Made by a program: the position numbers and the translations under genes
In this document: one piece after another, positions 2-5,371 of the stretch
Layout of the letters: each line of letters opens with the position of its first letter
How positions within the stretch are numbered: position 1 is the first letter of the stretch
The notes under the pieces: model-generated
Database searches by the model: none
Told to the model about the DNA's origin: nothing
What the model saw: the letters and a program-made list of their open reading frames with translations, nothing else
Source: Candidatus Latescibacterota bacterium
GTDB lineage: Bacteria > Latescibacterota > UBA2968 > UBA8231
Length of the DNA: 64,000 nucleotides
Reading direction: 5' to 3'
Assembly (NCBI GenBank): GCA_965223905.1
Contig: CBDCXV010000011.1
Span: forward strand, 2,131,908-2,195,907

Positions 2-1339
2 GACAATCCGTTTCTTGAACGGGCCCTTCAGAACGACACCATATTTGCAGACATCCAGGACCGCGTCAGGGAATTGAGTCTGACCCACTTCGATCCGGAA
101 TATCTTTTCGCGCTGATAGACAGCCTTCAGGCGCTACTGGCCCCGAGTGTCGCACTTGACAGGACGGACGATGTTGCAGACCTGGCACAGTGGAGGAGGC
201 AGATAAATTCCGAGCGCGGCTACATACAGTCGCGCGCTTCCCGCCTCCAGGAGCAATTCGAGAAATGGCCTTCCCCTTTCCAGACCCTGGGACTGCGTTG
301 GATCGAGGAAACTCCCTGGTTGGTCTGGCAAACCTCGGACAAATCCACCACCTACACCCTGAAGTACGGCAAGGAGCGCACGCTCCCCGAGGACGGAACC
401 CGGACAATTGAAGGCTTGACCGACACCGCTTACGCCCTTCAGTCGGACCTACCCTCCGGGAAGTATTTCTGGAATGTAGAAGCCTTCAACAGCTACGGGT
501 CCTTCGAGGCTTTCGACAGCAAAGCCACTTTCGTTTTTACGAAACACCTGAGGGAGAGAACACCCGAAACCGACGATGTCGTAATTATCAACGAATTGAA
601 CTATCGCTCCGCCGATGATTTCGACGCTGGTGACTGGATAGAGTTGTACAACCCTCAGAATCGGACAATCGATGTTTCCGGGTGGTATCTCAAGGATAAC
701 CGGGACGACCATACTTTCTTTATCCCCAATTCCACCTATATCGGCAGAAATACCTATCTCGTTTTGTGCCAAAACAGGGACGATTTTCTGGCTCTATTCC
801 CCAAGATCCGTACCTGCGCTGGAGACTGGGATTTTGGGCTGGATCGCGCCTCCGAATCAGTCAGGGTCTTTGATTCCAACGGGACGTTGGTCGATTTCGT
901 TGCTTACCGAAACGAACTTCCCTGGCCTGTCGAGGCTGACGGGACAGGCTCAACTCTTCAGCTTATCAAGGCTGAATCGGACAATCGGTCGGCAGCAAAC
1001 TGGGGGGCATCCTCCCGGCACGGGTCTCCGGGGGAGGCCAATGATCCAATCCGTCTCCCAGCAGGGGAAGCCATGAGCAGTTACCCGAATCCCTTTAATG
1101 AGGCCACCACCATTTCTTTTTTCCTTTTTGAAGGAGCCCTGTGTTCCTTGACTATTTTCGACATTCGAGGGGCCCAGATCATCAAGTTGTTGGACGAATG
1201 GAGACCCTCGGGTTTTCACCAAGTGATCTGGGATGGGAACAATCAAAAAAACAATCGTGTAGCAAGCGGCGTGTACATTGCTCACCTGAAAGGTCCTGAG
1301 GGAATTGGCGAGGCCCAAAAGATTGTCCTGCTCAGGTAG
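2..1339 (+). CDS. Secreted multidomain protein, 5'-truncated by window: probable CotH-kinase C-terminal part, Ig/FN3-like domain, lamin-tail domain (LTD), C-terminal FlgD-Ig/T9SS-like sorting domain
   Basis: Frame open from position 2. LTD motif VIINELNY...DWIELYN...IDVSGWYLKD. C-terminus SYPNPFN...WDGNN...VASGVY...KIVLLR. Lower GC than the downstream core. Confidence 0.75.
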   Translation, partial: DNPFLERALQNDTIFADIQDRVRELSLTHFDPEYLFALIDSLQALLAPSVALDRTDDVADLAQWRRQINSERGYIQSRASRLQEQFEKWPSPFQTLGLRWIEETPWLVWQTSDKSTTYTLKYGKERTLPEDGTRTIEGLTDTAYALQSDLPSGKYFWNVEAFNSYGSFEAFDSKATFVFTKHLRERTPETDDVVIINELNYRSADDFDAGDWIELYNPQNRTIDVSGWYLKDNRDDHTFFIPNSTYIGRNTYLVLCQNRDDFLALFPKIRTCAGDWDFGLDRASESVRVFDSNGTLVDFVAYRNELPWPVEADGTGSTLQLIKAESDNRSAANWGASSRHGSPGEANDPIRLPAGEAMSSYPNPFNEATTISFFLFEGALCSLTIFDIRGAQIIKLLDEWRPSGFHQVIWDGNNQKNNRVASGVYIAHLKGPEGIGEAQKIVLLR

Positions 1340-1651
1340 TCCGCTGAGCAACATGTAGGGTGCTTGTGTTTCACAGAAAAAAGCCTGGCTTCCTTACCTG
1401 CGAGTTCGCGGGGCTGGGAGAGTTTCGCACCTGTTTCAGTTTGCAGAGTGCAGCTGAAAATGGGAGAACGCCTCCGGCTACCGAGTACCACCGGGACGCG
1501 AAAGGGTTAAACCTCGAACGCTGATACAGCCCTTTCGTGAGGGGCACTTCAGGATGCTGGTGCATCCGTGCCGGCAGGTGCCACGGTTCTCAAAAATGGT
1601 ATGGCTTGAGTTCTGCGTGTATGCACTGCTGGGGGTAGCGGTGCTGATTGA

Positions 1652-1728
1652 TGGTGGGCGATGCCGGGCTCGAACCAGCGACCCCCTGCTTGTAAGGCAG
1701 GTGCTCTGACCAACTGAGCTAATCGCCC
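1652..1728 (-). tRNA. tRNA-Val (anticodon UAC), CCA encoded
   Basis: Reverse complement GGGCGATTAGCTCAGTTGGTCAGAGCACCTGCCTTACAAGCAGGGGGTCGCTGGTTCGAGCCCGGCATCGCCCACCA folds as a cloverleaf with TAC anticodon and TTCGA T-loop. Confidence 0.97.
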
Positions 1729-1829
1729 CCGGCAGAAGAAGGTAGCGGCTCATCCCGAGGGGGGCAAAGGTCCGCCCGCAGAGCTCTCCCTCCTCCGTCC
1801 GCCCCTGGCAACCTCCCGGCGGGTGAAAA

Positions 1830-1859
1830 TTGACCGTCCCCAACCCGCCGGGTTATATT
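1830..1859 (+). promoter_or_regulatory. Putative sigma70 promoter for the tyrS leader
   Basis: TTGACC-N18-TATATT, with an inverted repeat CCCGGCGGGT...ACCCGCCGGG around the -35 box. Confidence 0.55.
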
Positions 1860-1895
1860 CGGCTATCCTGTTAATCAAAATTGGCAACTGATTGC

Positions 1896-1937
1896 ATGAC
1901 ACGACGCGTTCACAGCGAGTATCGCTATACCCCCTGA
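1896..1937 (+). CDS. Putative tyrS leader peptide MTRRVHSEYRYTP (two Tyr codons)
   Basis: ATG ACA CGA CGC GTT CAC AGC GAG TAT CGC TAT ACC CCC TGA. The Tyr codons lie at and within the 5' strand of the first attenuator hairpin. Confidence 0.7.
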   Translation: MTRRVHSEYRYTP

Positions 1938-1971
1938 AGGGGCTAGCGCCGCGTTGCGTCCAGCGTGTTCG

Positions 1972-2005
1972 AGCCCCCGATAACGCTTCGGGGGGCTTTT
2001 TCTTT
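1972..2005 (+). terminator. Rho-independent terminator (attenuator 3:4 hairpin) upstream of tyrS
   Basis: AGCCCCCGA-taacgct-TCGGGGGGCT followed by TTTTCTTT, about 30 nt before the tyrS ATG. Confidence 0.8.
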
Positions 2006-2035
2006 GTACGCCAACCAACGGCATCCAGGCGGCTT

Positions 2036-3283
2036 ATGAACATTCTCGATGATCTTCAGAACCGGGGGCTCGTCTACCAGGTCACCGACGGCCTCGAAGA
2101 GCGGCTGCGGCAGTCCGCGCCGCTGACCGTGTACGCCGGCTTCGATCCGACGGCCGACAGCCTCCAGATCGGCAACCTCGTCACCGCGCTGCTGCTGCGG
2201 CGTTTCCAGCAAGCCGGACACGTGCCGATCGCCCTGGTCGGCGGCGGCACCGGTCTCATAGGGGATCCGGGCGGCAGGTCGGAGGAGCGCGCCCTCAATC
2301 CCGCCGAAACCGTGGCGGCGTGGGCGGAGAAGATCAGGGCCCAGCTCGAGCCCTACCTCGACTTCAATTCGCGCACAAACCCCGCGATCCTCGTCAACAA
2401 CTACGACTGGCTCGGAAAGGTCGGGGCCATCGACCTGATGCGGGACGTCGGCAAGCACTTCCCGGTCCCCTACATGCTCGCCAAGGACTCGGTCGCCTCC
2501 CGTCTCGAGGTGGGGATCTCCTACACCGAGTTCAGCTACATGGTGCTGCAGGCCTTCGACTTCCTCGAGCTGAACGAGCGCTACGGCTGCGAGGCGCAGC
2601 TCGGCGGCAGCGACCAGTGGGGGAACATCACCGCCGGGGTCGACCTGATCCGGCGCTCCGCGGGGCGCCGGGCCTACGGCCTCACCAACCCCCTGGTCAC
2701 CAAGGCGGACGGCAGCAAGTTCGGCAAGACCGAGGGCAATACCGTATGGCTCGACGGCTCCCTCACCTCGCCCTACGAGTTCTACCAGTTCTGGATCAAC
2801 GCCGACGACGCCAGCGCCCTGAACTACCTGAAGGTCTTCACCTTTCTCGGGGGGGACGAGATCGAGGCGCTCGCGCAGGCGACCGCGGAGAACCCGGGCC
2901 GGCGGGAAGCCCAGCGCGTGCTGGCCCGGGAGGTGACGGCGCTGGCGCACGGGCCCGACGCGGCCGCCAAGGCCGGGAAGATCTCCACGGCCCTGTTCTA
3001 CGGGGATCTCGGCGAGCTCGAGGAGGACGAAATCGAGCTGGGGTTTCACGACGTCCCGACCTACCGGATGAGCGAGCCGGAGCTCGGGCTCGTCGATCTC
3101 CTGGTCGCGGCCGGGATCTCGCCGTCGAAACGGCAGGCGCGCCAGGACATCGGCAGCGGCGCCATCTACGTCAACGGCGAGCGCTGCACCGAGCTCGACC
3201 GCCTCATGCGCACCCGCGACGGCCTGCACGGGAAATACCTCGTCCTGCGCCGCGGCAAGAGCAAGTACTTCCTGATCAGATAA
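2036..3283 (+). CDS. tyrS: Tyrosine--tRNA ligase
   Basis: YAGFDPTADSLQIGN (HIGH-like), QLGGSDQWGNI, KFGKT (KMSKS-like), C-terminal S4 domain. Start moved from 1892 to MNILDDL at 2036. Confidence 0.97.
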   Translation: MNILDDLQNRGLVYQVTDGLEERLRQSAPLTVYAGFDPTADSLQIGNLVTALLLRRFQQAGHVPIALVGGGTGLIGDPGGRSEERALNPAETVAAWAEKIRAQLEPYLDFNSRTNPAILVNNYDWLGKVGAIDLMRDVGKHFPVPYMLAKDSVASRLEVGISYTEFSYMVLQAFDFLELNERYGCEAQLGGSDQWGNITAGVDLIRRSAGRRAYGLTNPLVTKADGSKFGKTEGNTVWLDGSLTSPYEFYQFWINADDASALNYLKVFTFLGGDEIEALAQATAENPGRREAQRVLAREVTALAHGPDAAAKAGKISTALFYGDLGELEEDEIELGFHDVPTYRMSEPELGLVDLLVAAGISPSKRQARQDIGSGAIYVNGERCTELDRLMRTRDGLHGKYLVLRRGKSKYFLIR

Positions 3284-3292
3284 GGCAGCGGC

Positions 3293-3322
3293 CGCGGAAA
3301 CGGGAGAAGGACCCGTTCCGCG
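3293..3322. terminator. GC-rich hairpin between convergent tyrS and guaA
   Basis: CGCGGAAACGGG...CCCGTTCCGCG inverted repeat; no canonical U-tract on either strand. Confidence 0.35.
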
Positions 3323-3349
3323 AAAACGACCGCGGCCGGCCGGCCCGCC

Positions 3350-5167
3350 TCATTCCCACTCGACGGTGGCCGGCGGCTTGTGGGTGATGTCGTAGTAGAC
3401 GGCCTCGATCCCGTCGAGGTCGAGCAGCTTTCCGGTTACCTCTGCCAGGAAGGCCTCCGAAAGGCGATCGAAGCGGGCGGTCATGAAGTCGTCGGTGGTG
3501 ACCGGGCGCAGCACGATGCTCTCGCCGCGCCCGTCCGAAGAGAGCGGTACCAGCACCGCCGGCATCTGCGTCACCGCGGCCATCAGCCCGTGGCGCTCCA
3601 GGGCTTCCATGGCGATCGCGTCCGCCTCCCGCAGCAGGTCGAGCCGCTCCCGCGTCAGGTACCCCTCCTTGAGGCGCTGATCCAGTCTTCGTTCCGGTCC
3701 GAGCTGCAGGACGACGCGGTTCACCTGCGGCAGCCTGTTCGTCAGCTCCGTGCTCAGCCGCTCCAGTAGGTCCCAGTCGATGGCCGCCGGGGCCGCCCCG
3801 GGGCCGGAGATCCGCACCGGGTGGGCGTAGCTGCGGCCGTCTCCCTGAACGCCGACGCTGCGCAGCGGCAGCAGGTCCGCGGTGAGGCCGGAGGCCACCG
3901 CTTCGGCCGCGACCTCGCCGGGCACCTGCGCCCCCGCGGCGCCGTCCGCCTCCCCGTCGCTGCACAGCACCCGCACCGCGAGGCCGGGTCCGGGGAACGG
4001 GTGGCGCCAGACCAGGCGGCGCGGCAGCCCGAGCTTCTCTCCCAGCTCCCGCACCTCGTCCTTGTACAGGTCGCCGAGGGGCTCGACGATCTTTCCTTCG
4101 GCGAGCAGCTGCTCGACGACGGGGACGCGGTTGTGGTGGGTCTTGATGGTCTCGGCGTGGTCCGTCCCGCCCGACTCGATGCGGTCGGTGTAGAGGGTCC
4201 CCTGCCCCAGCAGCCACTCCTCGGGATCGAGGGCGAGCTCTTCGAGGGCGCGGTCGCGGGTGCGGATGAACTCGTCGCCGATGCGCAGGCGCTTGACCTC
4301 CGGATCGCTGACCCCGGCGACCGCGGCGAGGAACTCCCGGCCGGCGTCGACGACCTTGAGGTTCTCGAACCCGGATTCCCGCATCAGCTCCGCGACCGTT
4401 GCGGTCTCGTTCTTGCGCATGAAGCCGTTGTCGATGTGCAGGCCGAGCACGCGGTCGCTGCCCAGGGCCCTGTTGAGGAGCAGGAAGCAGACGCTCGAAT
4501 CGACGCCGCCGCTGACGAACAGGAACAGCTTGCGGCCGGCGCAGCGCTCTCGCAGCGAGGCCACCGACTCGCCGATGAAGTTCTCCATCGTCCAGGTGCG
4601 CTCGCACCCGCACAGGTCGAGGAAGTTGTCGAGAATCCGCATCCCCGACTCGGTGTGGGTGACCTCGGGGTGGAACTGCATGCCCCAGATGCGGCGTTCC
4701 CGGTCCCCCATCGCCGCCACCGGACAGTCCTCGGTCTCGCCGAGGCGCTCGAATCCCGGCGGCATTTCCGCGACCGTGTCGCGGTGGCTCATCCAGATGC
4801 TTTCCACCGGCGCCAGGCCGCGCAGCACCCCGGTCGGCGAGTGCACGCGCAGCGACGCCGCGCCGAACTCCATCCTGTCGCCCGGTTCGACCCGCCCTCC
4901 GAGGTGGTGGCAGAGCAGCTGGTGGCCGTAGCAGAGTCCCAGCAGCGGCAGGCCGCAGGAGGCGATCTCCGGATCGAACGGCGGCCGGTCCTCGGCGTAC
5001 ACGCTCGCCGGCCCCCCGGACAGGACGATGCCGCGGGCGCGCCGAAGGCGGTCGGGGGGCGTGTCCGGAGGGAGGGTCTCTGCGTAGACGTTGAGGCGGC
5101 GGATGCGGTTGGCGATCAGGTGGGCGTACTGACCACCGAAGTCGAGGACGGCGATGCCGGGGTTCAC
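3350..5167 (-). CDS. guaA: GMP synthase (glutamine-hydrolysing), long form
   Basis: IAVLDFGGQY, GLCYGHQL, QFHPEV, SGGVDS, IKTHHN, RHPFPGPGL, KPPATVEWE. GTG start with GGGGAG upstream. Confidence 0.95.
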   Translation of the reverse strand: MNPGIAVLDFGGQYAHLIANRIRRLNVYAETLPPDTPPDRLRRARGIVLSGGPASVYAEDRPPFDPEIASCGLPLLGLCYGHQLLCHHLGGRVEPGDRMEFGAASLRVHSPTGVLRGLAPVESIWMSHRDTVAEMPPGFERLGETEDCPVAAMGDRERRIWGMQFHPEVTHTESGMRILDNFLDLCGCERTWTMENFIGESVASLRERCAGRKLFLFVSGGVDSSVCFLLLNRALGSDRVLGLHIDNGFMRKNETATVAELMRESGFENLKVVDAGREFLAAVAGVSDPEVKRLRIGDEFIRTRDRALEELALDPEEWLLGQGTLYTDRIESGGTDHAETIKTHHNRVPVVEQLLAEGKIVEPLGDLYKDEVRELGEKLGLPRRLVWRHPFPGPGLAVRVLCSDGEADGAAGAQVPGEVAAEAVASGLTADLLPLRSVGVQGDGRSYAHPVRISGPGAAPAAIDWDLLERLSTELTNRLPQVNRVVLQLGPERRLDQRLKEGYLTRERLDLLREADAIAMEALERHGLMAAVTQMPAVLVPLSSDGRGESIVLRPVTTDDFMTARFDRLSEAFLAEVTGKLLDLDGIEAVYYDITHKPPATVEWE

Positions 5168-5371
5168 GGCGTGCTCCCCCGGGGAGAGGGTGGCTGTCGA
5201 AACGTGGGGAGAGGCCGGAATATAGCTCCGGCGGACCGCGGTGCAACCGCTCGATACCGCGGGGCGCGTCTGCTGTCGAGTCCGCACGGAAAACACCCGG
5301 GCCAGCCTGGCCCGGTATGGTTGCCGACAGGCGACCCCGTCCGAAAAAGGCTCGACGGTCGCCGCCAGGCC

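Follow-up and report, generated by a model that had tools for sequence, protein, structure and literature searches.

The leader analysed here lies upstream of tyrS in a MAG of Candidatus Latescibacterota, within a stretch of 64,000 nucleotides that we call the window and from whose first base all positions are counted. The genome holds a single tyrS match, the gene listed in Table 1 together with the parts of its leader. The upstream neighbour of the leader is a tRNA-Val gene on the opposite strand, and therefore the terminator that precedes tyrS does not belong to an upstream gene. Further upstream, an ORF on the forward strand (2-1339) encodes a Lamin Tail Domain and a Por_Secre_tail domain of the kind used for type IX secretion sorting. 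Downstream, a GMP synthase-type gene on the reverse strand (3350-5296) converges on tyrS, with 66 nt between their stop codons; a pattern scan detected no terminator-like site in that gap. Parts of tyrS (2086-3060) are matched at 95-100% by contigs from four metatranscriptomic libraries labelled sponge metagenome, at a depth of about 3-4. These contigs lie in the coding region of tyrS, cover none of the leader and, being contigs, cannot show transcript ends; as a habitat clue, they hint that the organism or a near relative occurs there.

Table 1. Parts of the tyrS leader and adjoining genes, in window positions
Feature	Position	Strand	Basis or remark
tRNA-Val (anticodon TAC)	1652-1728	-	Divergent; about 100 nt from the promoter-like site of the tyrS leader
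Promoter-like site TTGACC-18 nt-TATATT	1830-1859	+	Sole such match in 1300-3600; 10/12 hexamer positions
Predicted leader ORF, 13 codons plus TGA, MTRRVHSEYRYTP	1896-1937	+	Sequence read; relatives have homologous Tyr-rich ORFs
Segment 1: CGCTA and C-run just past the Tyr codons	1923-1934	+	Free-RNA folds pair it with segment 2
Segment 2: G-run GGGGCTAGCG	1939-1948	+	Complementary to segment 1 and to segment 3
Small internal hairpin inside the 2:3 helix	1950-1967	+	Predicted; fold with ribosome on the first TAT
Segment 3: terminator 5' arm AGCCCCCG	1972-1979	+	Also antiterminator partner of segment 2
Segment 4: terminator 3' arm CGGGGGGCT and T-run TTTTTCTTT	1989-2005	+	Sequence, pattern scan, 3:4 covariation on alignment A1
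tyrS, tyrosine--tRNA ligase	2036-3283	+	TIGR00234 tyrS, 397 bits against a cut-off of 113.8

The leader transcript would begin near 1866 if it starts from the promoter-like site, and a pattern scan of 1998-2035 found no promoter-like site that would belong to tyrS itself. Pairs resembling TTGAC and TATATT are also visible by eye in the upstream sequences of relatives. The first-pass annotation had described a short ORF with two TAT codons in this leader, and we confirm it. It opens with ATG (1896-1898), continues with ACA CGA CGC GTT CAC AGC GAG TAT CGC TAT ACC CCC, and closes with TGA at 1935-1937; it has no clear Shine-Dalgarno sequence, and its CGA is a minor Arg codon in this genome. The Tyr codons presumed to be regulatory are the TAT triplets at 1920-1922 and 1926-1928. 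Because TAT makes up only 18% of Tyr codons genome-wide, where Tyr accounts for 2.4% of all codons, both are the rarer synonym. The tyrS gene itself uses 17 TAC codons and no TAT, in agreement with what had been seen in the first reading.

Three mutually exclusive pairings had been proposed for the RNA that follows the Tyr codons, and all of the complementarities are present. In the 1:2 pairing, CCCC at 1931-34, part of a C-run spanning 1930-34, is complementary to GGGG at 1939-42 with the stop codon in the loop, and the hairpin is extended by CGCTA (1923-27) against TAGCG (1944-48). The 2:3 pairing joins GGGGCT (1939-44) to AGCCCC (1972-77) in a helix of 6 bp. The 3:4 pairing is a terminator with arms at 1972-79 and 1989-97, and our pattern scan scores 1974-1994 with its T-run as the sole terminator-like site in 1300-3600.

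T-box RNAs and other known RNA families were considered and set aside after Rfam searches that covered the window and the loci of 15 relatives. The T-box family had no match up to E = 10 in the window (1400-2300) or up to E = 1 in the relatives' loci, which bears out the earlier statement that no T-box motif is present, and no other family reached its threshold in either set. The best leader scores in relatives were 26.1 bits for Thr_leader and 26 bits for Phe_leader (in one relative), against a threshold of 55; the window gave none.

Conservation of the leader among relatives

To follow the leader through the phylum, we examined the region upstream of tyrS in 52 genomes from f1, the family to which the window belongs, taken in three batches (25 + 7 + 20) from 68 genomes plus the window's own with a TyrS match. 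The comparison set consisted of 25 genomes from four other families of the same phylum (11 from f2, six from f4, two from f3 and six from f10). Our automatic rule searched up to 330 nt before tyrS for a terminator-like hairpin and for an ORF, 8-40 codons long, whose end falls no more than 60 nt from that hairpin. A terminator-like hairpin precedes tyrS in 46/52 genomes of the family and in 1/25 of the others. Since the rule keeps the most Tyr-rich candidate ORF, the counts for a Tyr-containing leader are inflated in favor of the hypothesis: a terminator together with a short ORF holding at least two Tyr codons occurs in 39/52 genomes of the family, covering 14 of its 18 genera, and one with at least one Tyr codon in 45/52, against 0/25 in the other families for both. 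Loss of the leader ORF or of its Tyr codons in relatives had been named as the outcome that would speak against an attenuator; instead, they are kept across most of the family. The alignment of upstream regions that the first-pass annotation had suggested thus bore out the Tyr codons and, as described below, covariation of the terminator, but yielded none for the 2:3 pairing.

The window's ORF is a modest member of this group. Much more Tyr-rich peptides are typical in the family, such as MTRTIAYRYYYYASGG, MTFATTYRYYYSTSGG, MTTHRLRAYYRYYRSPGAFD, MPVITPAFAYYRYRYYRDTYRGALL and MQTLRADRHYYYTSLHREG; ORF length ranges from 13 to 28 codons in relatives, and the number of Tyr codons from 1 to 6. The element is missing from three genera of the family (g3, with two genomes, g12 and g17). 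In g10, one genome has a single Tyr codon and another has no scored terminator, and in g18 six of the nine genomes have one Tyr codon, in the context DRRYRR. The terminators of g18 also stand out. The hairpin is much longer in the subgroup with one Tyr codon (L019, L044, L123, L127-L129), with 14-bp arms, and a second subgroup (L036, L122, L125, L126) has 15-bp arms and a loop of about 21 nt. Among the comparison families, f2 and f4 (L027-L031, L132-L143) carry tyrS without a leader, a few tens of bases after a PRAI (trpF-type) gene (PF00697, 140.6 bits for L029:913-1473). Judged from this profile assignment, gene order in these families ties tyrS to a tryptophan-pathway gene.

Tyr triplets in these leaders are locked to one reading frame. 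In 15 genus representatives, 49 of 301 in-frame codons (16%) are TAY, against a genome background of 2.4%, and the other two frames of the same leaders hold 3 and 7. The binomial probability of the in-frame count against that background is about 8e-26, a figure to be read with the fact that the ORFs had been picked for Tyr. Seven close leaders of g14 show the same constraint on a finer scale: their three Tyr codons differ only by TAT-TAC exchange, and variable sites fall 4/1/6 over the three codon positions. Arg and Tyr codons also alternate in many leaders (RY, YRY, RRYRR), for example in L006, L007, L010, L014, L019, L023, L025 and at 1917-1928 of the window, and the nucleotide motif CGATAY is repeated in leaders across genera.

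With its promoter-like site, ORF and terminator, the leader could in principle be an independent micro-protein gene, unconnected to the control of tyrS. The peptide, however, varies freely in sequence and in length (13-28 residues) outside the Tyr codons and the G-run, the ORF always lies directly before tyrS, and tyrS would be left without a promoter, since 1998-2035 holds no promoter-like site. We consider this reading barely credible.

The frame of the Tyr triplets also bears on whether the leader might instead be an RNA switch that binds a protein or a tRNA, either T-box-like or with TyrRS acting on its own leader as in thrS, so that the UAY triplets would be RNA contacts. Such a switch would fit with the T-box control of tyrS in Firmicutes (stated in the accessible text of PMC1262725), with the repeated CGAUAY motif of many leaders, and with G002, a close relative that keeps the RNA without a start codon. 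Against this, T-box models found nothing in the window or at 15 loci of relatives even when the E-value cut-off was relaxed, and the leader is only about 110 nt long. Its Tyr triplets are frame-locked (49 versus 3 and 7) within ORFs that open with an ATG and stop next to the G-run, they number from 1 to 6, unlike a single specifier, and the sister leaders before aroFGH-type genes, described below, use Phe, Tyr and Trp codons instead. An RNA switch of this kind is very unlikely.

The RNA elements that follow the ORF are conserved as well. On alignment A1 (28 leaders), 93.7% of cells are paired in the 3:4 terminator, and 4/9 pairs show double-sided change (22 cells), a level of covariation reached in 0/500 shuffles; slid registers collapse. 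GGGG occurs within 55 nt before the terminator in 38/45 leaders of the family, compared with 20/130 background windows, and CCCC is present in the terminator 5' arm in 44/45. Because the G-run falls in differing reading frames (GGG GGC, AGG GGC, GAG GGG, CGG GGG), it is conserved at the level of the RNA. The composite motif of GGGG, a spacer of 25-55 nt, a CCCCYG hairpin and a T-run occurs once per genome, at tyrS, in 4/5 complete genomes of the family, and its reversed control had 0 matches.

Spacing between the ORF and these elements is similarly constrained. In 22/24 rows, the G-run comes 9-27 nt after the last Tyr codon of the cluster; in the remaining two, a further Tyr codon lies 3 nt ahead of the G-run. 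In the window the last TAT lies 13 nt before the G-run, the same geometry as in richer leaders. In every row but one, the start of the G-run precedes the stop by 4-15 nt; the exception is the window, whose G-run begins 4 nt past the stop's first base. These distances fit a ribosome footprint that extends about 12 nt beyond the A-site codon, and a ribosome at the stop would cover the G-run in either arrangement.

Alternative pairings and a proposed mechanism

We then considered the two pairings that compete with the terminator. For RNA ending at segment 3, the G-run pairs with the zone of the stalled ribosome in 9/13 genus representatives, as expected for 1:2, and a contiguous 2:3 helix of 6-10 bp can be drawn in 14/14. 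In transcripts cut before segment 4, a footprint stalled at Tyr gives the 2:3 helix in the minimum-energy fold for most leaders shown, and a footprint at the stop removes it in most leaders shown. Folding the leader with a ribosome in place had also been suggested for the window's own sequence, and there the outcome was mixed: in the cut transcript, the 2:3 helix is in the best fold with the ribosome on the first TAT but is absent with the ribosome on the second.

Covariation gave no support to the 2:3 helix. With the register fixed on A1, paired cells amount to 61.7%, and none of the pairs shows double-sided change. Own and foreign partners differ significantly neither in duplex energy (-13.96 versus -13.74 kcal/mol; 7084/20000 permutations) nor in helix length (7.36 versus 7.19 bp; 6580/20000 permutations), and RNAalifold on the cut alignment leaves 3 pairs of 2:3 at -0.5 kcal/mol. 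The lack of a covariation signal in these four tests follows from the near-invariance of both partners. Such near-invariance would be expected of a segment that has two partners, and the antiterminator is predicted from complementarity.

Equilibrium folds of the full leader, with the footprint moved codon by codon, favor the terminator everywhere in most leaders and so do not discriminate between ribosome positions; the folds of cut transcripts were more informative. Because the terminator wins at equilibrium whatever the ribosome position, the switch would have to be kinetic.

We propose that translation of the leader reports the supply of charged tRNA-Tyr. When Tyr-tRNA is plentiful, the ribosome would reach the stop at 1935-37 and cover the G-run at 1939-44, and with the G-run covered, segment 3 would pair with segment 4 and transcription would end before tyrS. 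When Tyr-tRNA is scarce, the ribosome would stall with TAT in its A site and cover segment 1 up to about 1938. The freed G-run would then pair with 1972-77, blocking the terminator, and RNA polymerase would read into tyrS. More TyrRS would restore charging, a homeostatic feedback as in pheM-pheST. Without translation, 1:2 would form and the terminator would be favored. The ORF, its codon bias, the terminator, the complementary segments and their conservation are observed directly; translation of the ORF, stalling at its Tyr codons, formation of the 2:3 antiterminator in vivo and a response to tyrosine are what we infer from them. The class to which the element would belong is that of ribosome-mediated attenuators of the pheM-pheST type, with sensing of charged tRNA-Tyr predicted. 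We conclude that the element before tyrS is real and conserved family-wide, and that it is likely a tyrosine-sensing leader-peptide transcription attenuator.

The copy in the window, taken by itself, is not beyond chance, and the case therefore rests on conservation in relatives. Its fold energy is at the level of shuffled sequences (z = -0.19 for 1866-2037 and z = -0.48 in a second test). A crude scan of the same genome for a short ORF plus a terminator returned 129 candidates, of which 7 also have at least two Tyr codons, and none of the 129 besides tyrS was a further convincing leader-peptide attenuator. The window's genus is the weak end of the family, with two Tyr codons where most genera have 3-6.

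These properties raise the question of whether the attenuator, although real across the family, has in this genus decayed into a constitutive leader terminator that damps tyrS by a fixed amount and has lost its response to tyrosine. The low number of Tyr codons, the early stop, the lack of a clear Shine-Dalgarno sequence, the shuffle-like fold energy and the presence of other Tyr-containing candidates in the genome all point that way. So does G002, the closest relative (same genus; TyrS 95% identical), whose leader (L003:1356-1469) retains Tyr codons, G-run and terminator yet lacks an in-frame start: no ATG, GTG or TTG lies between the upstream TAA and the Tyr codons. The missing start may mean that translation was lost, that an unusual start is used or that the assembly is wrong here. 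On the other hand, the two Tyr codons are present in all three species of the genus (g1), as are C-run, G-run and terminator, and in G001 one TAT has become the synonymous TAC. Spacing matches that in richer leaders exactly, and a fixed strong terminator ahead of the sole tyrS would be costly. Decay of this copy is thus an unlikely explanation. We regard the window's leader as a minimal form of the attenuator that probably works as a switch.

A sister element before DAHP synthase

A covariance model (R1) was built from the leaders and run over 76 genomes of the family. It has a full-length match adjoining tyrS in 56 genomes, 28 of which were in the training alignment. Nine further full-length matches lie elsewhere: three are plain terminators at gene ends, and six stand before an aroFGH-type DAHP synthase gene (L152 at 201-331, L153, L154, L155, L156 and L160, from genomes G125, G157, G020, G014, G004 and G123). 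Four of these loci (L153, L154, L155 and L156) have full DAHP synthase genes, with TIGR00034 scores of 476-489 bits, and the gene in L152 is cut by the contig end. In L160 (1681-2043; G123), an intact-looking aromatic leader is followed only by a C-terminal remnant of DAHP synthase that covers profile positions 247-348 of 355.

Phe and Tyr codons, in some cases with Trp, abound in the six sister leaders (MTTSTRYFYYYWFYASGQGG, VKTSAAYRYFYFYFYYAFAERGER, MNHRIDRYFPFYFFAWKFSGG and similar), which share with the tyrS leaders the G-run at the stop and a CCCCTGA terminator. Because Tyr codons precede tyrS and a mixed aromatic set precedes aroFGH, the composition of the leader tracks the gene that it controls. 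In G020 and G004 the sister element is present even though their tyrS lacks a leader. The DAHP synthase gene of the window's own genome, which is 52% identical to that of a relative, has no such leader.

These loci raise the prospect that the family runs an aromatic-amino-acid regulon in which two related attenuators of a shared design, with a G-run at the stop and a CCCCYG terminator, respond to different signals: Tyr for tyrS, and Phe, Tyr and Trp for DAHP synthase. We see the chances of this as evenly balanced. If true, a single attenuator scaffold would have been re-programmed in nature to answer another amino-acid signal through leader codons alone, and the tyrS element would stand as the first ribosome-mediated attenuator of an aminoacyl-tRNA synthetase to be specific for tyrosine. 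Together, the tyrS and aroFGH leaders make a compact natural system in which to study how codon content sets and re-sets attenuator specificity, and a recurrent unannotated mini-gene gains an annotation rule.

Comparison with known systems

Control of tyrS is a textbook example of T-box regulation. The T-box leader of Bacillus subtilis tyrS, reportedly described by Henkin and colleagues in 1992, acts on the same gene as the leader proposed here, and in both low charging leads to read-through of a terminator, with a choice between terminator and antiterminator as the output. The two differ in their sensor. Uncharged tRNA binds the RNA directly in the T-box, whereas the sensor predicted here is a translating ribosome. 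The problem of controlling tyrS has apparently been solved a second way, by the other classical device, a translated leader.

To our knowledge, the Latescibacterota have no cultured members. Relative to the literature that we found, the novelty lies in tyrosine as the amino acid and in a phylum without cultured members; conceptually the finding is moderately surprising, since its mechanism is a classical one. The first-pass annotation knew of no described Tyr leader attenuator for tyrS. We likewise found none, for tyrS or as a dedicated attenuator of any aminoacyl-tRNA synthetase, in the literature searched, whose coverage of subscription journals is incomplete, so that absence from print is unproven. 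The same searches found no riboswitch, attenuator or leader-peptide report on Latescibacteria that describes a Tyr leader before tyrS.

The closest mechanistic parallel is pheST of E. coli, which is controlled by attenuation at the pheM leader (Springer et al. 1985, as cited in the accessible text of PMC11802643 and PMC1262725). In both cases a leader rich in the cognate codons attenuates the gene for an aminoacyl-tRNA synthetase and provides feedback through tRNA charging. The differences are that pheM-pheST is a Phe system of gamma-proteobacteria, whereas ours concerns Tyr and tyrS in Latescibacterota, and that the two share no sequence relation. Attenuators have also been predicted for trpS2 and leuS of Streptomyces (Seliverstov et al. 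2005, accessible text of PMC1262725), where the tyrosine genes of Actinobacteria are given as having no RNA element. Like the element described here, these are classical attenuators of single aminoacyl-tRNA synthetase genes outside the Proteobacteria that came from comparative genomics, but they involve other amino acids and another phylum.

For the sister element found at six loci, the nearest known analogue by leader composition and by gene is aroR-aroF of Corynebacterium glutamicum. There, the aroR leader, with its Phe-Tyr-Phe sequence, attenuates the DAHP synthase gene aroF, and Tyr availability is without effect (Neshat et al. 2014, via the accessible text of PMC11802643). Unlike aroR, the tyrS leaders of this family carry Tyr as their only aromatic signal.

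A final parallel is found in bacilli, where hisS paralogues have His leader peptides instead of a T-box (Naville and Gautheret 2010, accessible text of PMC2965389). In the accessible text of that study, leader peptides are given as known in 2010 only from Proteobacteria, Actinobacteria and some Firmicutes, and neither "tyrS" nor "tyrosyl" occurs. As in the hisS leaders, a leader peptide here replaces the T-box before a gene of the aminoacyl-tRNA synthetase type; unlike them, with their His codons and Firmicute hosts, the leader proposed here would read Tyr and belongs to the Latescibacterota.
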